Shown: positions 389 to 63,171, numbered from the stretch's first letter. The stretch is 64,000 bases of DNA from Elusimicrobiota bacterium (GCA_044221725.1 JBGAON010000001.1:448001-512000); one strand, 5' to 3'. The notes: generated by a model from the sequence alone, not told the origin. A program made the numbers and translations.

Positions 389-399
389 TTTCCGTCGCT

Positions 400-1430: not shown

Positions 1431-1440
1431 GCTCGAAAAA

Positions 1441-1490
1441 GTTACAGCTTGTTTACGGATTCTTAATAAAATTTTAATCCTGCCTTTATA
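1441..1490 (+). promoter_or_regulatory. Phased TTA(C/A) direct repeats upstream of giant gene 1; candidate OmpR/PhoB-type operator
   Basis: TTAC 1442, TTAC 1453, TTAA 1463, TTAA 1474, TTTA 1485; identical spacing at 55073-55121. Confidence 0.55.
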
Positions 1491-1538
1491 ACGTGGTTTC
1501 CTCATTGCCTAGCCATTTCTCAGTGATCAGGGGGAAAC

Positions 1539-4500: not shown

Positions 4501-7500
4501 GGCGCGACGGCGACGAATCGCTCATCGCGTGGTGGGCGGAGCGGCTCGCGGAATTTACGAACGAGCAACGCGATATTCAAAAAAAGAAATGGTCGGCGCT
4601 CGAGCAAAAGGTGAACGGAGCGTTTGAAGAGGATGGGAAAACGCGGCGCAAGGGCACGGGCCTGTATGACAAAGTGTCGGCGAGCATTGAGGCGAACGAG
4701 AAGCACAAAAAATTGTGGGATCAGTTTCGGGGATATTACCTGGTGGACATCTACCGCGGCGTGCGTGCGGTGGGGGAAATGTCGCTTCCCTGGTGGGAAA
4801 ATTTGCTGCAGTCGTTTCAGGAAGCGTACGAGTTGGAAGTAAAGTCGTCGGCCGAATACAATCCTTCCGAGCTCCGTCCGTCCGATGAAGCATGGGAAGA
4901 AGCAATCAAGATGATGCATTCGATCATCAAAGATTTAACCGCCGAACTCGATCAGCACATGGCGCAAAACAAATGGTGGGTCCGCGCGTTTCATGCGCTG
5001 AACCGTGGCAATTACACGACGATGGAATGGTGGGCGAAAGACTGGATTTTTCATGAAGGATGGGGACCTTCGGTCATCAAAGAGTTGAACGAAATTGCCA
5101 GAAAACGAGCCCCCGATTCCTTGGAATCGTTAATCCCAACGACGAACGCGAATTATTTGGGCAACCCCATCATGATGGAAGTGCGCGATTGGATGAAGCA
5201 GAACTTCAATCTGTTTGTTACCGACGAATATCTGACCACCGGCATGCACGCGTTTTTGCCGGTGGATAAAGCCGGACGGTTCTCGTTCCGTTACAATGGC
5301 AACGATTACATGGGAAAAGGTGGTATCGGCCAGCGATCGGTGTGGGAAGGCCTTTCCGCGATTTCAAACAGAGTGAAAACCGGAACCGACCTGCTCGGCA
5401 TGAAGCATGCATTCGATGTCATCAACAATATCTACGCCGATAACACAACCAAAGTGAAACCGCCGGATGTCGCTCACGCGATCAATACGATCGGCCCCCG
5501 TTTGCTGAGCCGAAACAACGGTTACAACCGTTTGTCAACCGGTCACATTCCGTTCCACGAGTTCTACAAGCTCATGAAAGACGATCGACTTGGATTGATA
5601 GATGGATTCCAAATTGATGACTCGGTGATGTTCTCGGATCATGGAATGGGAAAGCGGTTTGACGGACGTGGTGGTTACATTTTTATTTCGCCGGACGGTG
5701 TGCGCTTGCGTGGTTTCGAACACGATGGCGACAAAGAGATCAAATGGAATTCGCGCACCGTAAAAAAAGCTGGCACCGATGAGCAGGTGCTTTTCAAAAA
5801 CGCCGGCATTCCAAAAAGCCGTTTTCTTCCTCAGTTGGAGCGCGAGTACGGAAAACGCATCTCGCAGATTTCGGGTGCGGGCCGGCTCGGGCCGGCCATG
5901 ATCTTCTATTACCTTACGGAGTCGCGGTGGTGGGGAACAGTTTTGCTCGTGGGTTTTGAGATTCCGGTCATCGTAGCGCTTCGGTATTACGCGGGGCCCG
6001 TCGTAGCGGCTAATGTATTGCTTTTCTTTGCGGCGCTTCACGCTCCGCTTTCGGAATCACGCCCCGCGCTTTTTGGCGCACGTTATCAGGGACTGTCGTT
6101 CGCGCTGCGCGTGTTCGTTTTTTCGGCATATGTGTTGGCGCCCATCAATACGTTTGTGGGGTGGGCACTTTTGCCCGCCGCGCTTCAAATCCTCGTCGAC
6201 CTGTTGCTGGTGTTTCCCGGAGCAATCGAAAAACCGGAAACGAAAAGAGAAACCGAGAAACCTGCTGTTCCGGAAGTGATTGTTTCTGTTGTGCCGCGGT
6301 CGCTCACGACATTGGAGCTCGAAACGTATTTGACGACGGTGTTAAACCCCGACGGTATGCGGAAGACCGAACGCACCCGCGCGTTTCAAGAAATTATTGA
6401 TCATGCGGATAAGAACACGCTCGCCATTGTGCACGAGAAATTGCGTCAAACACCCAGCCACAAAGCGTTGGCCACAACGTACAACGGACACGGTTACACG
6501 GTGGTGACCGAGCGCGTTGAGAACCCCGAAGTAAAAGTGCTGGAGTTGTTGTTGGCTCGGCTGCGCGAGAAGTTGAGTGTGAAAATTAAAATGCCGGGCG
6601 CGCCGGCTTACACCAATATCGACGACATTCCCTATCTCTCGTTGCGACGGAGCGTGAGCAACGACAATGAATATCTGTATCCGGTCAAACCGATCGCGAC
6701 GCAACTTATCGATAAAGCGATTTCGTCGAACAAGATCGGTTTAACCGATGTCGCCGATGAACGTTTTCGAAATTTCTTGCTCGCCATTAAGAATCATGTT
6801 GCTGCGCACCCGGACTCGATGTTGCGTTATGTGGTCGTCATGGGCGGGGCGGCCGGCAAAGGAATCTTTTTCCAGGATTCGGTGAACGATCTGGATTTGA
6901 CCGTGCGCCTTGAACTCACCGAAGCGGAGTTTCGACTGTTGCAGGATTCTCATTCGGCCGGGGTGTTGAACTTCAATAAGCAAGAGAAGCGTTTGCTTGC
7001 GCGGAAAATACATGATCATGTTGACCGCGTGTTAACCGAGCTTGCACAATTTGTTGGGGCCGAAAAGGACAAATTGCTCGATCCAGCAAACCTTGTGCCG
7101 ATCCGTACGGCGGACGGGCTCGAGCTGCAATTTTTTGGTCCTATTTTGGGGCGGGATACGAACAATCTTGAGGTCCTCATGCTGCGCACCGCGGCAGCAA
7201 CGGTCACGCTCGACGGCGAAGAAAAAATCAACGGTATGATGAATTTCTATGTGACCGCCTCGTTGTTGCATCTCGCGATCGATGCCGAAGGAAGGATTTA
7301 TCCACGTCTTTTAACGGCCGCCGAGTCAGAAAAGCCGGCTGTTTCTTGGGATGCGTTGGAAAAATTAAGGAAAGGTGTTATCGAAATTGTGATCGATGCC
7401 TTTGAGTGGAATCCGGGGACTTTGCTGCGGGTCGCGGCGATCGAGCTTCGCTACGCGCTTCAAGTGGAAAGCCGACACTGGGATTTCAATACGCTTATCC

Positions 7501-9128
7501 GTCGTTCGATCGGTGATTTCATCTTAAGGCCGAAACCCGCGGGAGCGGTGCGAAAATGCGTCACATCGCTCAAGGTTTTGCTGCAGAGGGCCATCGATGG
7601 ATCGGTGGTTCCGAACGCGGCTCACACGCGGCTGCGCGAAGCGGGCATTTATCAATTCGTCGAAAAATTGATTTCTCCAAGAGAAAATCGTTGGCACCTG
7701 TTGCACGAAGGCGGCATTCGGTTCGGAAAACACGAGGTGCAAAGCATTCAGGTGAAGCTTCCGGCCGGTGAAAGCCGTGCCGATGCAAAAAAAATGGAGA
7801 TTGAAGTTGAGGTTCGGCTCGGTCAGGCCGTGGACATGCGCGTTCATGCGATGGGCCCGCAATTTGACGGAGATGTTGTGCATTTGCTGGGAATGCCACC
7901 CGAAAAGCTCGTGGCGCTTGATGTCACGGTGCTCGATGCCAGCGGAAACCTCGAAAACCGTTTCACAACGCCGGTAAGGTTAACCAATCCGACGGCGGAG
8001 CATTACGGGGGCTATGTGTTTCGGGTTCCGTTCGAATTCAAGAATGCCGGCCCGCACAGAATCGAATTCCGTGTTTTTAATCCGTTCGAGCCCGAGGTGT
8101 TCGCCGACAAAGTGGAGACGACTCTTTTGCCAGATTCGATGGGAATCCCGGTGGGGGCGGAGGAATATATTTTTCGTGTGTTCGGCTTAATGATTTTGCC
8201 GTTAATTCTTTTCTTATTGGTGCCCGTCTTCGCGCCCGGTGATTTCAGGTTCGGTTCCTGGCTCGGATTTTTTGTGTTGGTGGGAATTCCCGCCGCTGCG
8301 TTTACCTTTAGTGTGATTGGAAATGCGTTGGCCCATTTTCCCGTGGACGGATTGTCCGCTTTTGAGAACTTTCCGCTCCGCGTCGTTCGGGCGTTTCATT
8401 ACACGGCTTTGTTCTGCGAAATGTTCATTGCCGAAGGACCCTGGGTCGCAATTGTCGGTGTCATCGACGAGCACAAGCGATACAACGAAAAAATGGACGC
8501 GACCGGCGGAATTCCAGATTCGCTAACGAATGGCGCGAATGGCAGGTCGCTCACCCGAAGGCCCATTCACTTGCGATCTTCTATTCGAACGTATGGGTTG
8601 GCGGAATGGAAGAACTTTTCTCCATCGCAATTGGACTCCGAGGATGTCATTCATGTGAGCTTGGCCGAGTTTGAGCACACGAACGAGCTAATGCGGAAGT
8701 CCCGGGCGTTTCATGCGCTTCTGGAACGAATTTTCGATCATGCCGTGGCGTCTCGCCTGGTGGTTACGTATCCAAGCGCAATGACAATCGATGAAGCGAA
8801 AACGCGCTTTCAGGAATTGCTCTATGAGCATCACCTATCCATTCCAATGAGCGTGATTTCTCGCAATGTGATCTTTAATCAACGAGATCGAGCAAATCCT
8901 GTTTCTGTGACGCAGCAATACAAAGAAGTGTTTGGCGGTCGCGTGTTGCATGCGCTGTCACTGACCAGAAGCGGACAGTATTGGGATTTTAATGATGTTT
9001 CATTGAATTCTGATCTGCCATCGTTGGTGATTGAAGTTATCGATTTGCTCCGCGGGCGATCGATGTTCTTGTCGAAAGAGACGATCCAAGAAATCTTGGC
9101 GCACAAACACGCGAATCAAAGTGCCTAA
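1539..9128 (+). CDS. Giant multidomain membrane/exported protein (2529 aa): conserved N-terminal domain, HExxH module, metallophosphoesterase, nucleotidyltransferase-like domain, CPBP-like membrane modules
   Basis: Continuous ORF, TTG start after AGGGGG; motifs IQDIH, GGFH, HELFH, SDQHG/GDLMDRG/GNHD/GHIP, GG...DLDL, AEEYIFR; N-terminal ~520 aa paralogous to 55157..62077. Confidence 0.9.
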   Translation: MTPRRFRVARRSIGFLTTVAYFITNVFVVPGMAGTNSVDFWRGRAAQQKNLAFTDLRLNSDPNGNSLSLPFASRSFPIFDSLLKRLSLTMRVQSVRVGAKNAPTVFLIQDIHRNNEAQKNIAQALSVIDSQLSQAGPILVAAEAAHGPLNFQPYRAAPTISTRKAIADYLLREKYISAVAWFGLWPDASSKIVGVDDDGLYGANVAAVRAAVKHQPGMVAEIQKLSADLSKQRVRALSKKLDELSGALIAYHHGQMPIVQYVRLLGNYADLTHYPMVEKLVRATNIETKIDSVQVKQERDTLFRKVASRKRISDWLAQATYELNAGAIDSNTFHLAFKKLLATEGVDLSSTPHFEKYLEYVALADSIQHEALFKEISDVTKEAIGKAAATPTERKLLERTVQLCLAQKLVNFELTPAEWGEYKKGRSPFLPFEDFYRLAEARSEKMAGNILKSTQRNAVLVAGGFHTPDIARILEARGFSTITLAPIIRDAANIKGSDYLSAFLRERSPLAKLFEGEKLTLADSAQLLAVPSAEAAQNAARILNGVAQAAAKNAKNPVAIISHNGATVEAGPGVRGDENHRFENVLGYKRIGFREKERDFRFSRKSPRSIFLASILSFSIAHFSDGEFAFQFFFVSGFVLLAWTVFEVARFGWGLYRGAELKAPDFYRALREAAEHGLIPESAVPLVRHADGTWFGSYQSGAHVYDSVTKSHVIFVRTEFAYNTKELARIIRHELFHKNHQSQAPPTGFDGKAVRPQTTRVARFDSLIRAVALNPFLDFLYELAAHVVEWTFEPTEEKAVNLETHSLDFNADLNNPEFLHRFHAELLKEIETLGSGKLRKIVVVSDQHGTIDKFDVLLVDAIRQVENRIPDGFVLDPDKTMNEQFAPFGFQLEDLKDRIFFHNLGDLMDRGPYGVKVYWRSKELLEAGISDFVMGNHDLWMLMNLMAYHLPWGPHFDFKAGTDTEYSDKYDDDYGTVREAVEHHNHAWRDGDESLIAWWAERLAEFTNEQRDIQKKKWSALEQKVNGAFEEDGKTRRKGTGLYDKVSASIEANEKHKKLWDQFRGYYLVDIYRGVRAVGEMSLPWWENLLQSFQEAYELEVKSSAEYNPSELRPSDEAWEEAIKMMHSIIKDLTAELDQHMAQNKWWVRAFHALNRGNYTTMEWWAKDWIFHEGWGPSVIKELNEIARKRAPDSLESLIPTTNANYLGNPIMMEVRDWMKQNFNLFVTDEYLTTGMHAFLPVDKAGRFSFRYNGNDYMGKGGIGQRSVWEGLSAISNRVKTGTDLLGMKHAFDVINNIYADNTTKVKPPDVAHAINTIGPRLLSRNNGYNRLSTGHIPFHEFYKLMKDDRLGLIDGFQIDDSVMFSDHGMGKRFDGRGGYIFISPDGVRLRGFEHDGDKEIKWNSRTVKKAGTDEQVLFKNAGIPKSRFLPQLEREYGKRISQISGAGRLGPAMIFYYLTESRWWGTVLLVGFEIPVIVALRYYAGPVVAANVLLFFAALHAPLSESRPALFGARYQGLSFALRVFVFSAYVLAPINTFVGWALLPAALQILVDLLLVFPGAIEKPETKRETEKPAVPEVIVSVVPRSLTTLELETYLTTVLNPDGMRKTERTRAFQEIIDHADKNTLAIVHEKLRQTPSHKALATTYNGHGYTVVTERVENPEVKVLELLLARLREKLSVKIKMPGAPAYTNIDDIPYLSLRRSVSNDNEYLYPVKPIATQLIDKAISSNKIGLTDVADERFRNFLLAIKNHVAAHPDSMLRYVVVMGGAAGKGIFFQDSVNDLDLTVRLELTEAEFRLLQDSHSAGVLNFNKQEKRLLARKIHDHVDRVLTELAQFVGAEKDKLLDPANLVPIRTADGLELQFFGPILGRDTNNLEVLMLRTAAATVTLDGEEKINGMMNFYVTASLLHLAIDAEGRIYPRLLTAAESEKPAVSWDALEKLRKGVIEIVIDAFEWNPGTLLRVAAIELRYALQVESRHWDFNTLIRRSIGDFILRPKPAGAVRKCVTSLKVLLQRAIDGSVVPNAAHTRLREAGIYQFVEKLISPRENRWHLLHEGGIRFGKHEVQSIQVKLPAGESRADAKKMEIEVEVRLGQAVDMRVHAMGPQFDGDVVHLLGMPPEKLVALDVTVLDASGNLENRFTTPVRLTNPTAEHYGGYVFRVPFEFKNAGPHRIEFRVFNPFEPEVFADKVETTLLPDSMGIPVGAEEYIFRVFGLMILPLILFLLVPVFAPGDFRFGSWLGFFVLVGIPAAAFTFSVIGNALAHFPVDGLSAFENFPLRVVRAFHYTALFCEMFIAEGPWVAIVGVIDEHKRYNEKMDATGGIPDSLTNGANGRSLTRRPIHLRSSIRTYGLAEWKNFSPSQLDSEDVIHVSLAEFEHTNELMRKSRAFHALLERIFDHAVASRLVVTYPSAMTIDEAKTRFQELLYEHHLSIPMSVISRNVIFNQRDRANPVSVTQQYKEVFGGRVLHALSLTRSGQYWDFNDVSLNSDLPSLVIEVIDLLRGRSMFLSKETIQEILAHKHANQSA

Positions 9129-26636: not shown

Positions 26637-28118
26637 ATGTCCACGATTACAACCTCGTCTACAACTTACGAACCGGTCATTGGTCTCGAAGTTCATGTTC
26701 AGATCAAAACAAACTCAAAACTGTTTTGCTCGTGCGAAACAAATTTTGGTGCGGCACCCAATTCCCACGTTTGCCCGGTGTGCACGGGCCAGCCCGGCGT
26801 TCTTCCGGTGTTGAACAGAAAAGCCGTTGAAGGAATCGTTAAAGTCGGCCTTGCGTTCGACTGCACGATCAATGAAGATTCCTTTTTTGCGCGCAAACAA
26901 TATTTTTATCCGGATTTGCCGAAGGCGTATCAAATCTCGCAGTCGGATAAACCGGTTTGCAGCGATGGGAAAATCGTGATCACCGTTGATGGAAAATCGA
27001 AAGTGATCCGTATCCAACGAATTCATTTGGAAGAAGATGCCGGCAAGCTCGTCCATTCGATTGGTTCGATGGAGCTTCCTTATTCGCTGGTTGACTTGAA
27101 CCGCTCGAGCATTCCGCTCATGGAAATTGTTTCTCATCCGGATCTTCGCAGCGCCGACGAGGCCCACGATTATCTTTCGGCGCTCAAAGCAGCGGTGCAA
27201 TACGTGGGCGTGTCCGATTGCGATATGGAGAAAGGATCTCTGCGCTGCGACGCGAACATTTCGGTGCGGCCGGTCGGCGAGACGAAATTCGGTACGCGCG
27301 TCGAAGTAAAGAACATGAACAGTTTCCGCGCTGTAAAAGACGCCATCTTGCACGAGATTGATCGGCAGGTGCGGTTAATCGAGGGTGGCGAGAAAGTCGT
27401 TCAGGAAACACGGCTTTGGAATGAATCCAAAGCGGCAACGTTCTCGATGCGCTCGAAAGAAGAAGCGCACGATTACCGCTATTTCCCCGAGCCGGATTTG
27501 TTGCCGCTCAAACTCACTTCCGATTGGATTGAATCCATTCGAAAGGCACTTCCCGAGCTGCCGGGCGCGCGGAAAGCGCGTCTCATAAAAAATTTAAATC
27601 TCAGCGATTACGACGCCGGTGTGCTCGTGGCCGATCAAGCGCTTGTGAATTATTTTGAAGAGGGCCTCAATCATTTGCCCGAAGGAATTCGTTCGAACGC
27701 GGCGAAACCGCTTGTGAACTGGACGACCACCGAGCTTCTCGGTCGGCTGAATCAAGATAAGAAGACGATCGAAGAGTCGCCGGTGTCAGCGAAATCGCTC
27801 GCGGAGCTCGTTGAGCTGATCAGCGGCGGAACGTTGTCGGGGAAAATGGCGAAGGATGTTTTTGGCGAGGTGTATGCGTCGGGTGGATCGCCGAAAGAAA
27901 TCGTCGCGAAAAAAGGTTTGGCGCAAGTGAGCAACGAAGGCGAGTTGCTGAAATTTATTGAAGAAGTGATCGCCGAAAATCCAAAAGTGGTGGACGACGT
28001 GAAGTCCGGGAAAGAGCGCGCGCTGGGTTCCCTCGTGGGCGCGCTTATGAAAAAGACGAAAGGCCGCGCCAACCCCCAGCTCGCCAACGAACTTTTGAAA
28101 AAGAAAATTCTTTCGTGA
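26637..28118 (+). CDS. gatB: Asp/Glu-tRNA amidotransferase subunit B
   Basis: VIGLEVHVQ, YFYPDLPKAYQISQ, HLEEDAGK, RSKEEAHDYRYFPEPDL. Confidence 0.97.
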   Translation: MSTITTSSTTYEPVIGLEVHVQIKTNSKLFCSCETNFGAAPNSHVCPVCTGQPGVLPVLNRKAVEGIVKVGLAFDCTINEDSFFARKQYFYPDLPKAYQISQSDKPVCSDGKIVITVDGKSKVIRIQRIHLEEDAGKLVHSIGSMELPYSLVDLNRSSIPLMEIVSHPDLRSADEAHDYLSALKAAVQYVGVSDCDMEKGSLRCDANISVRPVGETKFGTRVEVKNMNSFRAVKDAILHEIDRQVRLIEGGEKVVQETRLWNESKAATFSMRSKEEAHDYRYFPEPDLLPLKLTSDWIESIRKALPELPGARKARLIKNLNLSDYDAGVLVADQALVNYFEEGLNHLPEGIRSNAAKPLVNWTTTELLGRLNQDKKTIEESPVSAKSLAELVELISGGTLSGKMAKDVFGEVYASGGSPKEIVAKKGLAQVSNEGELLKFIEEVIAENPKVVDDVKSGKERALGSLVGALMKKTKGRANPQLANELLKKKILS

Positions 28119-53310: not shown

Positions 53311-53607
53311 ATGACCGATTCCAACATTACCATCAAAGACGTTCAACACGTGGCCACGCTGGCGCGGCTCGCGATGTCCGAAGAGGAGCTCGCGAAATAT
53401 CAGAGCCAGCTCGAGCGCATTCTTGGGCATATTGCGCAATTGAAAGGTATTAACACCGATGGCGTTCCACCGACCGCGCATCCCTATGAAACCACAACCG
53501 TGTGGCGCGAGGATATCGCGAAACCGTTTGCCGATTTGGAAGCGCTGTTCAAAAACGCGCCCGAGATGGAAGAGACGTTCTACCGAGTGAAGAAGGTCAT
53601 TGAGTAA
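53311..53607 (+). CDS. gatC: Asp/Glu-tRNA amidotransferase subunit C
   Basis: VQHVATLARL, T.GVPPT, WRED, NAP; precedes gatA. Confidence 0.93.
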   Translation: MTDSNITIKDVQHVATLARLAMSEEELAKYQSQLERILGHIAQLKGINTDGVPPTAHPYETTTVWREDIAKPFADLEALFKNAPEMEETFYRVKKVIE

Positions 53608-55068
53608 ATGGAACTCCAAGCACTTTCCGCAACAGAAATTTCTGCCGGCGTCTCGTCAAAAAAGTTTTCCGCCACCGATGTGGTTAATGCCTCGTTGGCG
53701 GCTATCAAAAAGTCCAACGGTGAATTGAACGCGTATTTGAGCGTCGCGGAGTCCGCCGCGCTTGAAGCCGCCAACGCCGTCGACGAGAAAGTGAAATCCG
53801 GGAAGCCCGCCGGCCGTTTGGCGGGCGTGCCGATCGCCATCAAAGACAACATGATGGTGAAAGGCCAGCCAGTTACCTGCGCATCAAAAATTCTTGGAAA
53901 TTACGTGGCACCGTACAACGCGCACGTGATCGAGCGTTTGGTTGCCGAAGGCGCGATCATGATTGGCAAAACAAATTTGGACGAGTTCGCGATGGGATCA
54001 TCAACCGAAAACTCGGCGTTTGGTCCATCGCGCAATCCGTGGGACACCTCCCGCATTCCCGGCGGTTCCTCCGGCGGAAGTGCGGTGGCCGTGGCGACGC
54101 GGACCGTGCCGATCGCGCTTGGAAGTGACACCGGAGGATCGATTCGTCAGCCCGCGTCCTTGTGTGGAATTCTTGGAATGAAACCCACGTACGGCCGGGT
54201 GTCGCGTTACGGCGTGGTTGCATTTGCGTCGTCGCTCGATCAGATTGGACCTTTCACGCATACGCCCGACGATATGGCGCTCACGATGTCAATCATCAGC
54301 GGCAAGGACGAGCGAGATTCAACGTCGGTGGACAAAGCCGTGCCCGATTTTTCTGCAGAGATGAAAAAACCGATTCATGGTTTGCGCGTTGGAATCCCAA
54401 GAGAATATTTCGTCGAAGGAATGGACGCCGACGTAAAGAAAGCCGTTCTCGAAGCGGCCCAAGTTTTAAGGAAGCTCGGCGCCGACGTAAAAGATATTTC
54501 GCTGCCAAACTCCGACCACGCGCTCGCGGTCTATTACATTCTTGCGCCGAGCGAAGCGAGCTCGAACCTCGCGCGCTTCGACGGTATGCGTTACGGATTC
54601 CGAAACCCAAACGCGGCGAATCTTATCGAGCAATACGGGCTTAATCGGCACGATGGTTTTGGTGCGGAGGTGAAGCGCCGCATCATGATCGGAACCTACG
54701 CACTCTCCTCTGGATACTACGATGCGTTCTACGCAAAGGCACAAAAAGTGCGCACGCTCATCAAACGCGATTTCGATCAAGCGTTCGCGAACGTCGACGT
54801 GATTCTTACTCCCGTTTCGCCAACCCCGGCCTTTAAGATTGGCGAGAAATCCGACGATCCGCTCACCATGTATTTGTCGGACATTTGCACAATCCCGTGC
54901 AACCTGGCCGGCATTCCCGGTATCTCAGTTCCGTGCGGTTTTACGAGCGGAAATCTACCGATCGGCGTACAGTTCTACGCAAATCTTTTCCAAGACAGTC
55001 TGCTGCTACAAGTTACGAACGCCTACCTCTGCGAAACCCTCTGGCATAAAAAAGCCCCAAAAAATTAA
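53608..55068 (+). CDS. gatA: Asp/Glu-tRNA amidotransferase subunit A
   Basis: GKTNLDEFAMGSSTE, PGGSSGGS, GSDTGGSIRQP, EVKRRIMIG. Confidence 0.97.
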   Translation: MELQALSATEISAGVSSKKFSATDVVNASLAAIKKSNGELNAYLSVAESAALEAANAVDEKVKSGKPAGRLAGVPIAIKDNMMVKGQPVTCASKILGNYVAPYNAHVIERLVAEGAIMIGKTNLDEFAMGSSTENSAFGPSRNPWDTSRIPGGSSGGSAVAVATRTVPIALGSDTGGSIRQPASLCGILGMKPTYGRVSRYGVVAFASSLDQIGPFTHTPDDMALTMSIISGKDERDSTSVDKAVPDFSAEMKKPIHGLRVGIPREYFVEGMDADVKKAVLEAAQVLRKLGADVKDISLPNSDHALAVYYILAPSEASSNLARFDGMRYGFRNPNAANLIEQYGLNRHDGFGAEVKRRIMIGTYALSSGYYDAFYAKAQKVRTLIKRDFDQAFANVDVILTPVSPTPAFKIGEKSDDPLTMYLSDICTIPCNLAGIPGISVPCGFTSGNLPIGVQFYANLFQDSLLLQVTNAYLCETLWHKKAPKN

Positions 55069-55072
55069 TCCG

Positions 55073-55121
55073 TTCACAACTCCGTTACGTAATTTTAACG
55101 GGAGCTTAATGCCGATTTGAT
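55073..55121 (+). promoter_or_regulatory. Phased TTA(C/A) direct repeats upstream of giant gene 2
   Basis: TCAC 55074, TTAC 55085, TTAA 55095, TTAA 55106, TTGA 55117; aligns without gaps to 1441-1489. Confidence 0.55.
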
Positions 55122-55156: not shown

Positions 55157-58100
55157 TTGAAAAACCGGCTAGCCCCTCAGAAAATCATCGCGCTATTTTT
55201 GTGTACCGTGCTGTTTGCGACGCACGTGGCGTTCGCCCACTTGCCCGAGACGTCTTTGTGGTCCGAACGACGCACCGGGTCGTCGCCCTGGAATGCCGCT
55301 ATTGAGGGCCCACGTTCCGTTGGGACCCTATGTCCTGACGTGAGCCGTTCCCGAATGAATGGTTTGTTCGTGGGCGCGATGGATTTATCGTCGCTCAATC
55401 CCTTTGTTACGGTTCGCAAAGTACTCAAACCCGCCGGCCACTCGAAATCGGTTGTGTTGCACATTCAAGATATTCACGGGAACCAAGAAGCCCAACTCAA
55501 TATCAGCAGAGCGCTCCAGAAACTAAACGAACAGAAAAAGATTGATATGGTCGCGCTCGAAGGTGCCTACCGAATATTTGATTTGTCGGTATTCCGTCAG
55601 TTCCCACGTCCGAACACCATTCGGGCGGTGGCAAATTACCTTTTGCGCGAAAAAAGAATATCCGGGCCCATTCACGCGATGATGACGTCTCCGGTCGTCG
55701 GCGTTTCTGTTATTGGCGTCGATGACGCAAACCACTACGCCGCCAATGTTCAAGCCGTGCGCGATGCGAGTTCACAGAAAGACAATGTTCAGCACGTTCA
55801 ATCCGTGCAACGCATCAAACTTGATTCCGAGAAGCGCAAATTGTTCAACGCGGCACTTTTGGATTTCGATCGCGCCGTCGAAGCGTATCGTTCGGAAAAA
55901 CTGCCGTTCGCCTCGTATGTGAAGTTGTTGGCCACGGGCCGATCGGACGTGTCGCCGGCGGTTCGTGATTATCTTGAGGTTCTGCGCATCGAAGCGAATA
56001 TCAATTTTTCACAAGTCGAAATAGAAAGAGATCTTTTGGTTGCGCAGATTGTTTCTCGGAATCGCGTGATCGCGGAACAGCTTCACAAAATGGCGTTCGC
56101 GTTTCGTGCGCAACAGATCGATCACGAGGCTTTTTATCTTTGGTTGAGAGACGCGGCCCGAAAATCCCACGTTCCAATCGAGAACTTTTTGGTCTTTAAA
56201 GAATATCTGCGCTACGTTCTATTGTCCGATCGCATTGACGTGGAAGCGGTTTTAGCGGAGGCGCGTCAACTCGAGCAACAGAGATTCCGCTGGCTCGTAA
56301 AAACAGCGGATGAACGAAGGTTGGTCGACGCGTCGAAAAGATTGTACTTGGAGTCTAAGCTCGTCGATTTTTCTTTAACCAAAAGAGAGTGGGAAGAGTA
56401 CGAGGAATTAATACCCCACCCTGCCCTCCCCACTGATAAGGCGTGGGGAGGAAAACTTTTTTTCACTAACCCTAAAACCTCGGGGGGGGTGCTCCCTCTC
56501 CATGTCTCCTCAATGGGGAGGGTAGGGTGGGGTATAGACGCTGTAAACCTTTCCCCTTTCGAACAGTTTTATCGGCAAGCGGAGCTCCGTGATGGGGCGA
56601 TGGCGAATAATTTTTTGAACGCCCAACGTTCAATAAACAATCTTCCACGAACAACGAGCGTTCTTATCACTGGCGGTTTTCATTCCTCCGGTATCGATGA
56701 CGCGCTTACAAAGGCAGGTTGCACCGTTGTCTCGATCGTTCCTCGCGTCACAAGCGCGGATGCGTCAAAAGCCTCGGCCTACTTAAGCGTTTTTGCTCAA
56801 GAAAAATCTCCGCTTGAAAAACTTTTTGAGGGACAAAAATTATTTCTCGCCAACGATCCGATGGCGCCTCTGATCCAATTTGTAGAAGCGCCGGTCGAGG
56901 TTGCCCTTTTTGAGGCGGCCAATGCGTTGTCAGCCGGGACCGAGACGATGTTGCCTTTGCCCGCTGATGCAACATTGAAAATTGATCGCGCCGGTGTGGG
57001 CTCGGCTCAGGGGGTGCTGACGCGTGGCGTAAGTGTGGTTCCGGTTGAGCTACGCGCCAACCCAAATGAAATTCTCGAAATGACCGACCGGTCCGTTAGC
57101 CCTTCGGTCGCGCGGCGGGCGATTGGTGGCGTGCGACGATTTTTTCACTGGTTGTTACGGAAATGCGGATTCGTTTATGCCGATGAAAACGCCGAGTGGA
57201 CCTCGAATCTCCATCTCTACGAGGCGGGTCAATTGCTGCTTCAAAGGGGTGCCGTCGGCGATGTAAGAGGTTCTTCAAACAATGTCGGTTTTGTTGGAAT
57301 GATGCCATTCAATCCGTTTGCGGTGTGGTACGAGGAGGCCTCGGAGCGTGCGGAGCAGGGCCATAGAGTGTGGCTTCCGTACGTAATCGCCGCGATGGGC
57401 GGCGTGTTCGAAGAATTGGTGATCCGAAATCTTCTTCAATTCGGAATTCTTGAAGCGTGTTTCGGCATGAGTGCGTGGTGGTCTGCGTTCGTTTACGCAT
57501 CGCTCTTTGCGACGGTTCTGCATTCGAAAATATACACAGCGGAAAGCCCCACGGCCGTTGGTGTAAATTATCTTCTCGGGTGGCAGCGTTGGATTTTGTT
57601 CGCGCTCGCGGTCGGATTGGGTTCGACCGGAGACCTTGAGGTCATCACCTTGGGTCACGCATTTTTTAATCCTCTCATGAGGTACATCGGTGGTCCGCTC
57701 GGCATGATGACAGAGCCGAACAATAAGAAAAGAGCAAAACCGTTTGATCCAGATGCATCAATTCTTTACACGATGCATCTGTTCAACCATTTGGACTCCG
57801 AATATCGAAAGCTCTGGAACGCGCCGGAGCCGGAGATGAAAAATCCGATGTACGCCCGTCCGGGCCAAAGACTTTTTGTGAAAGAAAATCTTTCCGTGGC
57901 CGAACGAACACAAATCGACGATCTTGTCGACACGCTAATGAAAGGTCAGCGCGGAGTGCCGGGTGCGAAACCTTTCCGCTACATGACGACGGCCGAGCAC
58001 CTTTTGATTGGCAAAGCTTTGCGCTCGAATTTGCGGGGGGAAGGCGCTGCAAGCAACAACCTCACCGAACCGCAACGGGAATTTTTGAGAAATTTGCTGG

Positions 58101-61100
58101 TGATGTGGAATATGGCGAATTTCTGGACGTTAACCCGGAAAATTCCCGCGAGGTCACGCAACGAAGTATTTCAAAACGTGCTCCTCTATGTGTTGAGACG
58201 CATTATTTACAAATACGACTATCACAAGGGCCTCAATTTCAATACGTTGGCGGGCTGGGCGGCGACGCAAGAAGTGTCGGTCCATTACCGCGAGAAGCAC
58301 AAACTGGCGGTTACAAAGCGTGTCACCGCCAAAGACCCCGACGCATTTTGGGAAATGCAGCCTGAAAGGGAAAAACGCAGCGATGATGGTCTTATCGAAA
58401 AGTTGCTCAAGGTTTTGGGCCGCCTCTCTCCCAAAGAAGAGAAAGCTCTGCGGTTGCGTTACGGGTTGATGAACACCAAGAAGGGTAAAAGTTTCGCTGA
58501 GCTCGCCGCCACGCTGAACATGACCGTGTGGGCCGTTCAAGATTTCGTTGATGTGGCCTACGCGCATTTGGAACGCGAATTTGCGCGTTTGGAAGATTTC
58601 CGTTTTCGACACACGGATGAAAATATTGTGCGCGATTTATCGCCGCTCGAGCACCGTGTGCTGAAATTGGCCTATCAAAGCCATGCTGTCTTTGACGATG
58701 CGGATATCGCCACTCTCCTCAATTCAAAAATCAGATCCAATCGGCCGAAGCTCACGCCCCTGCAAGTCAAAAAAATTCGAAAACGGGTGGAGTATCGTAT
58801 TCTGCACGGAAGGTTTCCTCCAAATCCTTTCGGCCCACCGCATTCGGTGTTTCACAACATGATGATGTTGCTTGGGGTGCCGTCGTCGCATATGTTGAAG
58901 ATTGTTGCGTTGTTTTCAATTCCACTGGAATCCGGGATCATTTTTCTGGGTTTGTTCGCGTTCGAGCATTCCTTTTGGTTGCAGCTGTTGTACATGATCG
59001 GCGCGGGTGTGCTTGATTTTTGCATCGGATATCTTGGATACAAAACCAGTGGTTCTTCTCTGCCAATAACGAGGCTGTTAATTGCGCATCATTTTTTTGT
59101 GATCGCGATGTATCTCTGTGGTTGGCGATTGTTGGCAAGGTCGGAACACGACGTTCTCATTTTTACCGTGATTGCGTCGATTCACATGCTGATTGATGCG
59201 GTAATTCTTTGGTGGCAGAACATCAGAAACTGGTTTTCGAGCGAGCCACGGCTTACGGATGATCCGGGTACCGCTGAGTTTCATATGGACGCGATGCGCG
59301 ACCGGGATCGCGTCGTCATCAATGGTCTGCCCGACAACCATCCGGTTGTAAGGAACCAGAGGAACTACGAAGGCAAGGAATTCATTTCCGAGCATAGAAT
59401 GAATCAGAACGTGGAATCGTTGCCGGAAGGGGACCTGGAGAAGCAAGAATGGTTGACCGCCAAAATTCCGCTGCAGAAACAAGCGGCAGCACAGTTTAAA
59501 AAGGTAGTGGATGCGATTCCCTCGGTTGTACCGATTGTCTATTCCGAATTGGCTCGAAATTTCAGTGAAGCGCGCGCGACGGAAGCGTTTGCCCGGAAGG
59601 CCGCGGAAATCCAAAAGCGGTTGTTGGAAGATGTGGCGGTCGTGGGTGTTTTCACGGAGCGGCGGCTGATGATTCCGCAGCTTTATCCATCGCGCTACCG
59701 GTTTGGGCGGTTGCGCATGAGCCGTGATCAGAGCGTGCTGTATGTTCCCATGCAGCTGTTTGCGGAAATGCGCTCGCCCGTTGAGATCGAACATTTTGCG
59801 TTTAGTTTTATTTTCGGACTCGAATGGCTGGACAAATACAAACGTGTCAAAGCGGAGGGCAAGGACAGTCGGCGGATCCATCTCGCGATGCACAAGCTCG
59901 AGGAAAGATGGAACGCCAAAGAAAAGAATTTCGTGAACATCCGTTTTCGGCTTCGGCATTTCGTGGACTATCTGAATTATCAATTCGATTATGTCCGTTC
60001 CTATTTCAAGATTGGAGCCGAATTCCGGCAACTCGAAGCGAAATACGCCGATATCACAAAAGAGCTCGAACAGGTGGTGTCGAGGAAAAAATTCCGTACG
60101 GTTGCTCATGGGGGAATGGACATCAATCGTGATTTAACAGCGGTTCGATTCTTCGAAAATCGGTCCACGATCTCCCGGGCTCAAAGTGACGTCGAACGGC
60201 TTGTTGATAAAGCCGAGCTGGTGGGCCTATTCGAAATTGCGCGTAAGATGATCTTGTTCGGCAACTATCTGTACATTTGTGAGACCGGAATTAATCCCGC
60301 TTTGCGAACTGTCCCGAACATTCGTTTGCTCGCACGAACACGAGGATACCGGCAGCTTATTCGCCTGCTGCGCGCTCTGAAGGACCGGCATATTCCGTTC
60401 GAATTGGGACATCGCGGTTGGCTTTCTTTTGTTTTGCCGGGCCCTCGTGACATAACGTACGTGCCAATCGGCTGGGGTGAAGTTGAAATGCTTTTGGCAA
60501 GCACCGAGAAACTTTTGAAATCCATTTTCGAACGTCAAATGGAAATTATTCACAAGCGCAGCAACTACGACATTATTGCGGCGAACTGGGAAATTGTTCA
60601 AGCGGCGCTCAAAGAGGTCCGTGAGATGTGCAAACAAGCCATCGAGGCGCACGATGCGCTTGAGGCGAATTTGCACCGCGTTGCGAATGCGCTTCTATGG
60701 ATCGCGGGTCAACTTAAGCCCAACGAGACGCCGCGAATCAGCGATCTGAAACGTCTTCGGCTGAGCGTGGACAACGTTGCGTTGGATATTCCGCTGAAAG
60801 ATTGGTTTCCGTTTCTTACGGAAAAGGAGTTTGTTTCGGTATTAAGGGACGAAAAAGCGCGCACAAATTTTCGGTTGCCTTCCGAAAAACAGGTCAAAGA
60901 ACTGATCCGCCTGTTTCGCTTTCTTGGTACGCCCAATCTCGAGCTTAAGAACCTGATCGGAGACGTGGTGCTGGTGGTGAAAGACGAGCGCGACGTGCAG
61001 ACCGTGATCGACAACTTCGATGATCTGAACAGCGCACAACTGGATTCTCTGACGATCATTGCACGGAACAAGAAAGTTAAAAATTTATTGGAGCGGCGTT

Positions 61101-62077
61101 TTCTTGAAACCGGGATTCGTGATCAAGAAATTATTCAAGCGGATCCATCTCTTTTCTCAATCCAGAGTCCGAGCCCCGAAGAACGGATTAATATTGCGCT
61201 GGTTCCGAAATATTTTGAAGGCACGCCGGTGAACATTAATCGTATGACGCTCGTGTTTTTCTCCAGTACAAAAATGCGCTTCGCCGAAATTTCCGATAAG
61301 GACGAATTGAACTTCGCACGCATGGCCATGTTTTTTCCTGCTGCCGATTCTGAGCGTTTGGGGCAACGGGATCACGGGCCGTTTTTTAAGGTGATGGAAA
61401 TTTCGCAAGAAAGAGCGCTGCAACAAGTGGTGCAAATCATCAGCAAGCCAAAAACGAAGGAACACCCGCGACTGGGTCTCATGTGGTTCATGCCGTCGAC
61501 GTGGGGGTATGCGATCGCATCGCACGAAGCGAGAGCCGGAAGAATGCCCGTGGCGATTTCCTACGCTTTTGCCGCGTTCGGTGGTCTCATGGAAGAAATT
61601 TTAATTCGGCGAACCGTTCAGACGCTCGTTTTTCATGTTCCTTTTGGAACGCCGGATGTTTTTGTGTTCGCTGTTGTCTACGCGCTTCTTTTTGCGGTTG
61701 TTTTTCATCAATGGGTTGTTGATGAACAAACCGGCCAATTTCGGCGCGCCACCTTCGAGGAAAAGTCTTACTTTTTTCTCTTGGCGCTTACGATTGGGCT
61801 CTTCGGCGGGGCTGCCAGCAGTTTTGAAGCAATGGGATGGCTGCACGCGTTGATTAACGCGCTGATTGCCTCTTCGTCCCCGTCACGCAACACCGAATTA
61901 ACCGGTACGCCACTCAACCTTGGTGTCAAATATATTGACGCACGTCATCCGACGCCGCAGCCGCCGTTCGATCGCGCGCAGCGCGAGAGGGAAATTGCGC
62001 GCCGTGCGTTTGTCCCTGAATCACGCCGATATTTTCAGAATTATCGTCCGCGGCTCGCAGCCCTGCGCTCAAGCTAA
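55157..62077 (+). CDS. Giant multidomain membrane/exported protein (2306 aa): conserved N-terminal domain, CPBP-like modules, embedded sigma-70-like domain
   Basis: TTG start, signal peptide; IQDIH...GGFH domain shared with 1539..9128; FEELVIR and MEEILIRR modules; KYDYHKGLNFNTLAGW and LSPKEEKALRLRYGL. Confidence 0.9.
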   Translation: MKNRLAPQKIIALFLCTVLFATHVAFAHLPETSLWSERRTGSSPWNAAIEGPRSVGTLCPDVSRSRMNGLFVGAMDLSSLNPFVTVRKVLKPAGHSKSVVLHIQDIHGNQEAQLNISRALQKLNEQKKIDMVALEGAYRIFDLSVFRQFPRPNTIRAVANYLLREKRISGPIHAMMTSPVVGVSVIGVDDANHYAANVQAVRDASSQKDNVQHVQSVQRIKLDSEKRKLFNAALLDFDRAVEAYRSEKLPFASYVKLLATGRSDVSPAVRDYLEVLRIEANINFSQVEIERDLLVAQIVSRNRVIAEQLHKMAFAFRAQQIDHEAFYLWLRDAARKSHVPIENFLVFKEYLRYVLLSDRIDVEAVLAEARQLEQQRFRWLVKTADERRLVDASKRLYLESKLVDFSLTKREWEEYEELIPHPALPTDKAWGGKLFFTNPKTSGGVLPLHVSSMGRVGWGIDAVNLSPFEQFYRQAELRDGAMANNFLNAQRSINNLPRTTSVLITGGFHSSGIDDALTKAGCTVVSIVPRVTSADASKASAYLSVFAQEKSPLEKLFEGQKLFLANDPMAPLIQFVEAPVEVALFEAANALSAGTETMLPLPADATLKIDRAGVGSAQGVLTRGVSVVPVELRANPNEILEMTDRSVSPSVARRAIGGVRRFFHWLLRKCGFVYADENAEWTSNLHLYEAGQLLLQRGAVGDVRGSSNNVGFVGMMPFNPFAVWYEEASERAEQGHRVWLPYVIAAMGGVFEELVIRNLLQFGILEACFGMSAWWSAFVYASLFATVLHSKIYTAESPTAVGVNYLLGWQRWILFALAVGLGSTGDLEVITLGHAFFNPLMRYIGGPLGMMTEPNNKKRAKPFDPDASILYTMHLFNHLDSEYRKLWNAPEPEMKNPMYARPGQRLFVKENLSVAERTQIDDLVDTLMKGQRGVPGAKPFRYMTTAEHLLIGKALRSNLRGEGAASNNLTEPQREFLRNLLVMWNMANFWTLTRKIPARSRNEVFQNVLLYVLRRIIYKYDYHKGLNFNTLAGWAATQEVSVHYREKHKLAVTKRVTAKDPDAFWEMQPEREKRSDDGLIEKLLKVLGRLSPKEEKALRLRYGLMNTKKGKSFAELAATLNMTVWAVQDFVDVAYAHLEREFARLEDFRFRHTDENIVRDLSPLEHRVLKLAYQSHAVFDDADIATLLNSKIRSNRPKLTPLQVKKIRKRVEYRILHGRFPPNPFGPPHSVFHNMMMLLGVPSSHMLKIVALFSIPLESGIIFLGLFAFEHSFWLQLLYMIGAGVLDFCIGYLGYKTSGSSLPITRLLIAHHFFVIAMYLCGWRLLARSEHDVLIFTVIASIHMLIDAVILWWQNIRNWFSSEPRLTDDPGTAEFHMDAMRDRDRVVINGLPDNHPVVRNQRNYEGKEFISEHRMNQNVESLPEGDLEKQEWLTAKIPLQKQAAAQFKKVVDAIPSVVPIVYSELARNFSEARATEAFARKAAEIQKRLLEDVAVVGVFTERRLMIPQLYPSRYRFGRLRMSRDQSVLYVPMQLFAEMRSPVEIEHFAFSFIFGLEWLDKYKRVKAEGKDSRRIHLAMHKLEERWNAKEKNFVNIRFRLRHFVDYLNYQFDYVRSYFKIGAEFRQLEAKYADITKELEQVVSRKKFRTVAHGGMDINRDLTAVRFFENRSTISRAQSDVERLVDKAELVGLFEIARKMILFGNYLYICETGINPALRTVPNIRLLARTRGYRQLIRLLRALKDRHIPFELGHRGWLSFVLPGPRDITYVPIGWGEVEMLLASTEKLLKSIFERQMEIIHKRSNYDIIAANWEIVQAALKEVREMCKQAIEAHDALEANLHRVANALLWIAGQLKPNETPRISDLKRLRLSVDNVALDIPLKDWFPFLTEKEFVSVLRDEKARTNFRLPSEKQVKELIRLFRFLGTPNLELKNLIGDVVLVVKDERDVQTVIDNFDDLNSAQLDSLTIIARNKKVKNLLERRFLETGIRDQEIIQADPSLFSIQSPSPEERINIALVPKYFEGTPVNINRMTLVFFSSTKMRFAEISDKDELNFARMAMFFPAADSERLGQRDHGPFFKVMEISQERALQQVVQIISKPKTKEHPRLGLMWFMPSTWGYAIASHEARAGRMPVAISYAFAAFGGLMEEILIRRTVQTLVFHVPFGTPDVFVFAVVYALLFAVVFHQWVVDEQTGQFRRATFEEKSYFFLLALTIGLFGGAASSFEAMGWLHALINALIASSSPSRNTELTGTPLNLGVKYIDARHPTPQPPFDRAQREREIARRAFVPESRRYFQNYRPRLAALRSS
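56411..56535. repeat. 125-bp palindromic element in frame inside giant gene 2
   Basis: Same terminal IRs as 10602-10723; the encoded peptide is absent from the paralog. Confidence 0.9.
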
Positions 62078-62136: not shown

Positions 62137-63171
62137 ATGAATTGCCCGTCCTGTCAGTTCAACAACGTCGACGACGTCCGCTATTGTGGCCATTGCCGCA
62201 TGAGTTTCTCGTCACTCAATATTGCGTTCTCCCATGTGAAAGGTCATCTCGCTTGGATTTTTCGCCGCGCGAACGCCGGTTTTCTTTCGGGGATGGTGGC
62301 CTGGTTTTTTATTCCGGCGCTCAGTCGTGTGATCTCAAAGGAGGCAACGACCGCACTTCACTTCGGGATACAAGGTCTGCTCGGCGGTGCGTTTTTTGGA
62401 ACCGTGGACGGAATGGTGGAGGAATCCTCGCCAAAAACATTTCGGGGGGGACTTTTGGGCGCGGTTGGGGGCGCCATCGGTGGAATTGTGTTTGGTTACT
62501 ACAGTCCGCGCATGACGCCCGAACAAACCGGCTGGGGACTTTTTGCGTTCTGGGCCACGGCGGGCCTGGCCATTGGAATGGTAAGCGCTTTGTGGGAACG
62601 AAGTTTCAAAAAGATTTCCGCGGGCGCTTTGAGCGGGCTCGTGGGCGGTGGCGTGGGCGGTGCGCTCGGATACGCCGTGTACGCGTATCTGATTCAAGAA
62701 TTTAATCCGGAAGGCTGGCTGATTCGCCGACTTTGTGAAGGTTTTTCGGGCGGAATCATCGGCGTCACCATGTGGTTCTCGATTGCTGTGGCCGAGCGTT
62801 TTGTGATTTTCAAACGGCGCATTATCGAAGGAAAAAGCCACAAGCATTGCGATCACTGCGAGGCGCAGAACCCGCTCAATACGTGGTACTGCGGAAAATG
62901 TGGCAGCGTGCTGCAGCAATCGGCGCCGCCCGCGGCGCTCAACCTTTCACCGTTTCAAACGTTGGACCGCCTGCGTGGATTTTTCCGTTTCATGACCCGG
63001 CTTGCCGCAACGACAAGCGTCATCGCGGGGCTGGTCGTGTTCGTGGTCTTCCTGCCGGTCAACAAGATGCTCGCGTTTGTGGCGCTTGTTTTGGTCGTAA
63101 TGGCTTGCTTCTCGCTGTTGTTAACCTTCTCAGCGATCGCGGAAGGGATTCAGATATACATTAAGAAATAG
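62137..63171 (+). CDS. Membrane protein with two zinc-ribbon motifs and Gly-rich TM helices
   Basis: CPSC..CGHC at the N-terminus; CDHC..CGKC internal. Confidence 0.8.
   Translation: MNCPSCQFNNVDDVRYCGHCRMSFSSLNIAFSHVKGHLAWIFRRANAGFLSGMVAWFFIPALSRVISKEATTALHFGIQGLLGGAFFGTVDGMVEESSPKTFRGGLLGAVGGAIGGIVFGYYSPRMTPEQTGWGLFAFWATAGLAIGMVSALWERSFKKISAGALSGLVGGGVGGALGYAVYAYLIQEFNPEGWLIRRLCEGFSGGIIGVTMWFSIAVAERFVIFKRRIIEGKSHKHCDHCEAQNPLNTWYCGKCGSVLQQSAPPAALNLSPFQTLDRLRGFFRFMTRLAATTSVIAGLVVFVVFLPVNKMLAFVALVLVVMACFSLLLTFSAIAEGIQIYIKK

Follow-up and report, generated by a model that had tools for sequence, protein, structure and literature searches.

Pro-sigmaK of Bacillus subtilis has a gene of its own and carries only a short pro-peptide, and the protease that processes it is a separate protein of a family other than the CPBP/Rce1-like proteases, which have PrsW as a remote relative. 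The late sigma factor gp55 of phage T4 consists of sigma2 only and reads the -10 element alone. Here we describe an open reading frame (ORF) of 2306 amino acids, P0001, that shares features with these systems. It starts with TTG and occupies positions 55157 to 62077 of a 64,000-nucleotide stretch of DNA from an Elusimicrobiota bacterium (GCA_044221725.1 JBGAON010000001.1:448001-512000; hereafter the window), on the plus strand like all parts of P0001 given below. P0001 belongs to a family of giant proteins in Elusimicrobiota and carries, as a cargo that can be swapped, a diverged sigma factor, which follows a module resembling an intact intramembrane protease.

The embedded unit resembles the group 1 and 2 sigma-70 factors (RpoD/SigA and RpoS; 5h6x, 8h3v) in the order of its regions 1.2, 2.1-2.4 and 4, in its sigma2 and sigma4 folds and in several residues on the -10 side, whereas it is without regions 1.1 and 3, has an acidic -35 helix and an extra helix-turn-helix (HTH), and sits between membrane modules of a long chain. 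As with pro-sigmaK/SpoIVFB (8vjl) and pro-sigmaE of B. subtilis, a sigma factor is held at the membrane and would, in our model, be freed by an intramembrane protease, and 8vjl_B is a fold match to the sigma unit (Z 10.2). Unlike in the pro-sigma factors, the candidate protease lies in cis and is of the CPBP type, and release would need two cuts. With the CPBP/Rce1 proteases (PF02517; MmRce1 4CAD, myxosortase MrtX, SpdC 6U0O, APH-1) the two modules A1 and A2 of P0001 share a four-helix core and the EExxxR, H and HxxxN motifs, with a modest fold match, but they comprise only the four core helices, are repeated within a polyprotein and have a putative activity. T4 gp55 and PhyR, too, derive from sigma factors and lack standard -35 reading, and chain F of 7d7d, which we take to be gp55, matches the fold of the sigma unit at Z 10.0; gp55, however, is without sigma4 and needs partner proteins, PhyR resembles extracytoplasmic function (ECF) sigma factors and has a receiver domain, and neither is embedded in a membrane protein.

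The overall layout recalls the multi-enzyme membrane giants of Omnitrophota, the 'Archaeovorins' of West-Roberts et al. 2023 (10.1101/2023.11.21.568195) and class 1 of Nielsen and Lui 2026 (10.64898/2026.06.07.730766), which, in the portions of these papers available to us, are described with a signal peptide, many membrane helices and strings of cytoplasmic-type enzymes, and with proposed self-cleavage via C39/S8 peptidases. The same portion of the former paper gives a SecA DEAD-like domain, an N-terminal C39/S8 peptidase and a length of at least 30,000 amino acids as Archaeovorin features. A Pfam scan of P0001 found no SecA DEAD-like, C39 or S8 domain, and with its 2306 residues P0001 does not belong to the Archaeovorins. 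Its family differs from the Omnitrophota giants in its occurrence in Elusimicrobiota, in a length of mostly 1,000-4,000 amino acids, in its shared, putatively Tiki/ChaN-like head, in its CPBP-like spacers and in having sigma cargo. The word 'sigma' occurs 0 times in the main text of either paper, the supplements of which may list such domains; 'CAAX' occurs 0 times in the main text of West-Roberts et al. 2023 and 'CPBP' 0 times in that of Nielsen and Lui 2026. The accessible parts of Seymour et al. 2023 (PMC10066038), PMC11573180 and PMC12057145 contained nothing on sigma. In the literature searched, we found no description of a sigma cargo in such giant proteins or of a sigma factor from a self-cleaving polyprotein, and no publication on delivered sigma effectors.

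The sigma-70-derived unit of P0001

Amino acids 942-1142 of P0001 are a sigma-70-derived unit with regions 1.2, 2 and 4 and without region 3. The RpoD-type motifs that a first-pass annotation of the window had read in this ORF are all present and in the order it gave, namely region 1.2-like at 57980, 2.1 at 58097, 2.2 at 58160, 2.3-2.4 at 58211-58273, 4.1-4.2 at 58424-58579 and a second unit at 58637-58810. The sigma2 domain (regions 1.2 and 2.1-2.4) spans 57980-58306 and is matched by sequence, profile and fold, and region 4 spans 58388-58582 and is matched by Pfam, phmmer and fold. The cargo itself starts 270 bases before the segment assigned by the annotation (57980-58805), at about amino acid 851 (57707), with an N-terminal extension (amino acids 851-941; 57707-57979) whose last 30 residues align with the sister protein L090 and whose remainder was delimited by eye only.

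All 17 matches up to E 1 in a phmmer search against PDB were SigA, RpoD or SigB, and the best (E 6.2e-5) covered regions 2.2-2.4 and 4 in two colinear stretches. A Pfam scan of amino acids 926-1228 found Sigma70_r4 at E 5.8e-5 (23.0 bits, 1.1 below the cut-off of 24.1) and no Sigma70_r2 match. A hidden Markov model (HMM) of 41 free sigma sequences matched amino acids 978-1142 at E 1.3e-11 (model positions 7-193 of 201), the best E for reversed family proteins being 0.083. Among the 41 were a wrong-frame ORF and four proteins that the query itself had retrieved; an HMM of 29 group 1/2 sigma factors without those five gave two colinear matches with a whole-sequence E of 2.9e-9 as a single comparison, against 1e-3 for an ECF-only model built, unevenly, from 7 sequences. 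The first ESM Atlas matches, with scores of 0.95-0.96, belonged for the most part to Sigma70_r2/r4 clusters, and a search of 1.84 billion representatives returned eight relatives at E ≤ 0.001 besides the query, which by their motifs are sigma-70-type proteins or fragments. Amino acids 912-1057, comprising the end of the extension and the start of sigma2, align with L090 at E 8e-7, and one same-family homologue is annotated by NCBI as 'sigma-70 family RNA polymerase sigma factor [Elusimicrobiota bacterium]'.

The first-pass annotation had considered a generic HTH without a sigma region 2 fold as the outcome that would speak against it, and a sigma2 fold was found. The best of 48,161 chains for the AlphaFold2 model of the unit was region 1.2+2 of RpoS (5h6x_B; Z 12.0, root-mean-square deviation 2.3, 94 aligned), and the sigma4 fold matched 4cxf_A (Z 9.7, deviation 1.9, 67 aligned). 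Foldseek gave 62 matches at E ≤ 0.001, and those listed were all sigma chains of initiation complexes. The model had a mean predicted local distance difference test (pLDDT) of 77, with blocks mostly at 80-96 in both domains, and a predicted TM-score (pTM) of 0.39; because its 16-row alignment holds sigma relatives, we do not count it as independent evidence. The sigma3 domain is missing, 56 residues separating the W433 equivalent from region 4.1 where the RpoD of this genome has 118, and region 3 is likewise missing in 7 of 11 other embedded copies. The second unit (58628-58810), which has a basic recognition helix and a net charge of +5, comprises three helices in the predicted model and matches the HTH of 4xvn_A (Z 7.3). 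Its earlier assignment as a further region 4 found no counterpart in sequence (E 0.36, against 0.35 for the reversed control), so that on sequence grounds we reject it as sigma region 4 and regard the unit as a predicted HTH.

A tree of 32 sequences and 133 columns, from which L021, L022 and L023 were excluded since their region 2 could not be cleanly aligned, placed the P0001 unit outside the clade of the seven ECF sigma factors of the genome (support 100), which argues against ECF descent. The embedded sigma copies formed no clade, and P0001 was not grouped with L027, L042 or L090; the tree does not settle the origin of the copies and we claim no single one. L090 shares the extension and regions 1.2-2.1 with P0001. 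Because it nevertheless keeps an RpoD-like region 2.4 and region 3, the P0001 sigma looks like a derived form; the grouping of the two proteins is unconfirmed by the tree.

We then compared the functional positions of 12 embedded sigma copies, including L026, in which the head was not seen, and omitting L021-L023. Residue numbers are those of E. coli, mapped on P0020. For the roles of the sigma regions we followed the accessible part of PMC4598750. In P0001, core-facing positions are similar at 5/10 (range among copies 4-8) and -10-side positions at 7/10 (range 5-8). The -35 positions are similar at 1/8, the fewest of 11 compared copies (2-8 in the other ten); the recognition residues R584, E585, R588 and Q589 are replaced by V, W, Q and D, and the region-4.2 helix, acidic in P0001, has a net charge of -2 compared with +5 in the RpoD of the genome. 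Kept in P0001 are the equivalents of K418, T429, W433 and Q437, of which W433 is identical in only 4/12 and Q437 in 2/12 copies, as well as an acidic residue at 403, found in 12/12 copies, while W434 is replaced by A. From this residue pattern and the helix charges, -35 reading has very probably been lost in the P0001 sigma, and engagement of the -10 element is possible. The divergence of DNA-contact residues reported in the first-pass annotation is thus strong in region 4.2 and only partial in regions 2.3-2.4. The pure decoy version of its suggested mimic is not favored, as the core-facing positions are no better kept than the -10 positions.

Pieces of P0001 were matched by sequencing runs of other studies, none of them spanning the whole ORF. 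Within the sigma stretch, contig pieces from DNA runs of two other studies and from two RNA runs matched with zero differences at 58111-58423, 58162-58368, 58430-58645 and 57866-58164. Because these runs have identical letters, the odd sigma residues in the covered pieces are not assembly errors; an assembly artefact is ruled out for these pieces by the matching runs, and also by the sister architectures described below. Contigs of the RNA runs covered 18/30 and 25/30 bins of the giant gene, and because they are possibly DNA-derived we do not claim expression.

A family with interchangeable cargoes

P0001 begins with a signal peptide and the head; module A1 then precedes the sigma cargo, module B precedes cargo 2, and module A2 precedes the tail. 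By reading, amino acids 1-27 (55157-55237) form a signal-peptide-like N-terminus with a basic start, a hydrophobic core (hydropathy 2.06) and an A-x-A end. The head (amino acids 86-570; 55412-56866) is a putatively Tiki/ChaN-like family domain with invariant QD-H, E and GGFH columns. A head of this type occurs in 26 proteins of the genome, which measures 2.82 Mb and is 94% complete; 25 of these proteins have a signal-peptide-like hydrophobic core by reading. A Pfam scan covering 18 of the 26 gave weak matches to ChaN/Tiki (PF04187) in 6/16 scanned paralogues (E 2e-4 to 0.01, all below the cut-off); the head of P0001 itself had no PF04187 match in Pfam, and a head profile gave chance matches only against PDB sequences. 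The paralogues carry hexokinase, GH18, 2-hydroxyacid dehydrogenase, dehydroquinate (DHQ) synthase, adenylate kinase, PP2C, FHA, beta-CASP nuclease, WD40, GT5, phosphorylase and Ser/Thr kinase domains, among others. The first-pass annotation overlooked this context, in which the sigma unit is just one among the exchangeable cargoes of 26 paralogues; because of this variety of enzymes, P0001 is not a dedicated sigma-signaling protein. Of 294 head-carrying loci, 80 were kept, and all of these came from Elusimicrobia/Elusimicrobiota or from Ca. Obscuribacterium magneticum, also a member of the Elusimicrobiota phylum.

How the cargoes move is seen in L042, a protein of the same genus, which has the order head, module B, cargo 2, module A and sigma, the contig ending there. 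P0001 and L042 thus hold the same two module-plus-cargo units in reverse order, and their shared module B plus cargo 2 is 29% identical over 631 columns (E 9e-79). Among 124 family frames, module type A is followed by sigma in three of four internal uses (P0001, L027 and L042), the fourth and more distant one being followed by a kinase-like domain. Because of the reversed order in L042 and the association of module A with sigma, the unit that is shuffled is a module together with the cargo behind it. Within the genome, sigma occurs in 2/26 paralogues, P0001 and L006 (1963 amino acids), the latter with a sigma above both Pfam cut-offs, behind which lie a membrane module and then a kinase. A direct BLASTP comparison of the two cargoes was not significant, so they are not recent duplicates.

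Sigma cargo also recurs outside this genome. In a head-selected sample, in which 68/93 frames had at least 1000 amino acids and many were cut by contig ends, sigma was found in 4/93 frames, two of the four being DNA of loci already counted. A sigma2 domain within a long frame occurred in 5/12 genomes of the order, a count in which the query had included most; G009 was new, with head and modules. L025 has three module-plus-sigma repeats and L024 two sigmas, while the one sigma of L027 retains region 3 and has five additional repeats of region 4. With the sigma of L027 as query, 29 long proteins were found, of which only the record of L027 itself had the head, while a word-index search with the P0001 sigma stretch among proteins of 1268-4036 amino acids returned P0001 alone. 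Module A was matched in three of the 11 other family genomes. The free sigma factors of the genome comprise its own RpoD and eight others above the Sigma70_r2 cut-off.

Several further features of the family were recorded. The embedded sigmas of L027 (4302-9788, minus strand) and L042 (1-5919, minus strand) are followed by extra region-4 HTH arrays, possibly an extended DNA-reading array. Cargo 2 of P0001 (amino acids 1363-2100; 59243-61456) looks largely helical, had no Pfam match and a best ESM Atlas score of just 0.79; it is common to one same-genus protein, its first 460 residues recurring in L042 (amino acids 681-1145, E 2.4e-58), and travels with module B. The short C-terminal tail (61892-62077) ends in small residues, a family signature: 21/26 paralogues end in Ala and 26/26 in A, S, G or V, usually after an amphipathic-looking helix, compared with 83/726 long ORFs (11%) ending in Ala as background. 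Among complete relatives, 28/38 end in Ala as well. The signature could serve as a signal for export, processing or degradation. The window holds a second family member of 2529 amino acids at 1539-9128, with a weak calcineurin-like metallophosphoesterase match (E 8.7e-4) and, by eye, a nucleotidyltransferase-looking stretch. In the head of P0001, an in-frame, REP-type-looking inverted repeat at 56411-56535 (41-nucleotide arms, 83% complementary) coincides with an insertion of about 35 residues that is absent or shorter in the paralogues. G000 also has ORFs of 18,006 and 13,689 amino acids without a P0001-type head (C2:219210-273230 and C3:407319-448388).

Membrane modules and their predicted orientation

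Module A1 (57296-57706), which precedes the sigma cargo, and module A2 (61475-61891), near the end of the chain, share EExxxR, a His with which the following helix ends and, in helix four, HxxxN, formed by E752, E753, R757, H789, H834 and N838 in A1 and by E2146, E2147, R2151, H2184, H2230 and N2234 in A2. These are motifs of CPBP proteases according to the available parts of PMC11980579 and PMC6588880. The only two Rce1-like (PF02517) matches of the genome at E ≤ 1 are these two modules, which scored 18.7 and 19.5 bits, respectively, against a cut-off of 22.4; 2/5 sister modules pass. An AlphaFold2 model of A1 (56 rows, pLDDT 78, pTM 0.70) has four long helices, and in a search of 48,161 chains it reached Z ≥ 5 only with SpdC (6.8), which we take to be a CPBP-superfamily member, Rce1 (6.3) and APH-1B (5.9), the next chain scoring 4.7. 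Rce1 and APH-1 are members of this superfamily according to the CPBP literature cited above. A PDB sequence search with the module found nothing significant.

An iterated profile detected 74 modules in 51/124 family frames and 0 in the other ORFs of the genome. The modules are mutually about 11-20% identical, and 55/74 of them combine E, H, H and N, a count in which the HxxxN part served as seed and the first His and the Glu did not. Module B (58841-59230), recognized by hydropathy and homologous to the first module of L042, is degenerate: it has a single Glu (E1258) and HxxxD (H1343-x3-D1347) in place of EExxxR and HxxxN, and no Pfam match. Judged from sequence and model, the membrane modules flanking the cargoes are probably CPBP/Rce1-like intramembrane-protease cores and thereby candidate agents of the release by proteolysis that the first-pass annotation had suggested without naming a protease. 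By eye and in a single case, the stretch before a module in L026 (about amino acids 1725-1745; frame 3-7271, minus strand) resembles a type IV prepilin cleavage site, with Gly, hydrophobic residues and Glu at +5.

Over the 74 modules, Lys and Arg make up 10-16% of the residues in three places, namely ahead of helix 1, in the loop that joins helices 2 and 3, and behind helix 4; in the remaining loops their share is 0.3-4%. Because of this positive charge bias at the module ends, the cargoes are predicted to lie on the cytoplasmic side. Since a four-helix module keeps the chain on the same side, one crossing would be needed between the exported head and the first module. The sole candidate is the weakly hydrophobic helix after the head (56867-56956; maximum hydropathy 1.17), a helix with a family median of 1.0 and a value of at least 1.6 in 14/111 members. 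Either this weak helix crosses the membrane or the insertion route may be unusual.

Around the giant gene, gatC- and gatA-like genes (by eye; 53311-55068) lie directly upstream, whereas GatB_N is matched only once, some 25 kb upstream (about 26637-28118), and the usual gatCAB order is broken. Short TTAC-type repeats, two of them about 11 bases apart, precede the start codon (55010-55100), and at least one such word is found upstream of most paralogues. Downstream on the same strand, 59 bases past the stop codon, lies a double-zinc-ribbon (DZR) membrane protein (62137-63171; DZR above the cut-off).

Proposed release of the sigma unit and its alternatives

Our tentative proposal, which we consider possible but short of probable, is that P0001 is a membrane polyprotein which processes itself and thereby sets free, in the cytoplasm of its producer, a sigma blind to the -35 box. 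The head would be exported by Sec and the chain would re-enter the inner membrane of the producer, where the four-helix modules may keep each cargo cytoplasmic, as the charge bias suggests. A module and the cargo behind it are shuffled as one unit among family members, sigma traveling with module type A. Module A1, with its full CPBP active site, may cut at or near its junction, and together with a second cut this would free a sigma cargo of about 380 residues, a step to which we give roughly even chances. The freed unit might use sigma2 and sigma4 to dock on the core of RNA polymerase, and, without standard -35 reading, may engage -10-type DNA as sigma2-only factors do, with the basic second HTH perhaps giving an upstream DNA contact. 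Overall, P0001 would work like a pro-sigma factor that has its own processing protease and an altered promoter reading.

Several observations weigh against this proposal, and those on the sigma unit itself would also fit a decaying passenger, in which an intact sigma cassette was captured and the P0001 copy has since drifted until only its fold survives. The tree branch of P0001 is long (1.53). Of the core-facing positions, half are eroded, with E407 replaced by N and G408 by V, and Y430 is replaced by L, so that P0001 is the sole copy of 12 without an aromatic residue at this position; the single similar -35 position is a point for decay. Its sigma stretch used as a query matched 0 of 11 other family genomes, and decay would also fit the much better preservation of its sisters L027 and L090. 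On the other hand, the frame is intact, all regions are in order and both domains are modeled with good local scores, W433 and Q437 are retained at positions where few copies keep them, and the loss of region 3 is common among the other copies. The identical letters in runs of other studies also speak for persistence, though only over a short term. We regard such decay as doubtful.

The remaining adverse points concern the modules. Although A1 reached Z 5.9-6.8 with three proteins of the superfamily, helical bundles commonly score in this range according to the search tool, and with the module model Foldseek gave nothing at E ≤ 0.001. The full E[ED]xxxR is present in only 7/74 modules, most having one Glu, and because module B is without EExxxR, the second cut has no obvious agent. 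APH-1 and SpdC have the CPBP fold and are non-catalytic, and the CPBP-fold protein CflP is reportedly non-catalytic as well. A conserved cleavage motif at the module junctions was not established, a strict pattern occurring in 10/74 modules against a background maximum of 10 and the motif reaching a cross-validated z of 1.2-3.5. Upstream of the modules, most family members have no canonical membrane helix between head and cargo. The weak junction motif, the degenerate module B, the single Glu of most modules and the non-catalytic relatives would all suit an uncut tether, whose modules staple the chain to the membrane while the attached sigma recruits or sequesters RNA polymerase or DNA there. 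Against it, E, H, H and N persist together in most modules despite their low mutual identity, and a holoenzyme tied at both ends of its sigma would presumably be sterically awkward; we find a tether of this kind rather unlikely.

The first-pass annotation had also raised delivery into another cell. P0001 would then be exported, enter a prey or host membrane and free its sigma to redirect or block the RNA polymerase of that cell, and the paralogues would form a polymorphic arsenal of reprogramming enzymes. Positive-inside bias, however, follows from insertion into the producer's own membrane, and neither an immunity gene nor a translocation domain was seen, with no genome-wide search having been made and secretion systems not having been searched; this organism, moreover, is not known to be predatory. 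In favor of delivery are the 26 paralogues with shuffled, poorly shared cargo, a cell that already has RpoD and eight free sigmas, the want of a firm anchor after the exported head, and the conserved Ala-ending C-terminal helix as a possible export signal. Similar Omnitrophota giants have moreover been linked to predation in the accessible parts of 10.1101/2023.11.21.568195 and PMC10066038. Taking both sides together, we judge a delivered effector unlikely. Distinctly unlikely is the wider version, a polymorphic self-processing delivery system whose members are exported and lodge in a partner membrane, where CPBP modules would cut out cytoplasmic cargo and the P0001 sigma would compete for the RNA polymerase of the partner. 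Very unlikely is a sigma mimic like PhyR (described as such in the available part of PMC4598750) whose partner would be an anti-sigma factor or an activator in place of polymerase and DNA: it would explain a kept fold with lost -35 reading, but no anti-sigma or receiver partner was seen among the neighboring ORFs read, and the unit stands outside the ECF clade whereas PhyR is ECF-like.

The giants of Omnitrophota and Elusimicrobiota have been published and yet lack an explanation, and their cleavage and the sidedness of their enzymes are open questions stated in the portions of 10.1101/2023.11.21.568195 and 10.64898/2026.06.07.730766 available to us. P0001 is short enough for cloning. Its candidate protease is named and the catalytic residues are defined, the junction to be looked for is given, and the cargo can be assayed simply, by core RNA-polymerase binding or in vitro transcription. 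Should the delivery reading hold, its -35-blind, -10-reading sigma would be a bacterial counterpart of the take-over of transcription by phage sigma factors, and the paralogues would deliver sugar, nucleotide and signaling enzymes. If instead the self-processing that we tentatively propose is true, P0001 would be a case of a sigma factor made inside a self-cleaving polyprotein. The reversed order of the two module-plus-cargo units in a protein of the same genus shows a route by which this family diversifies.

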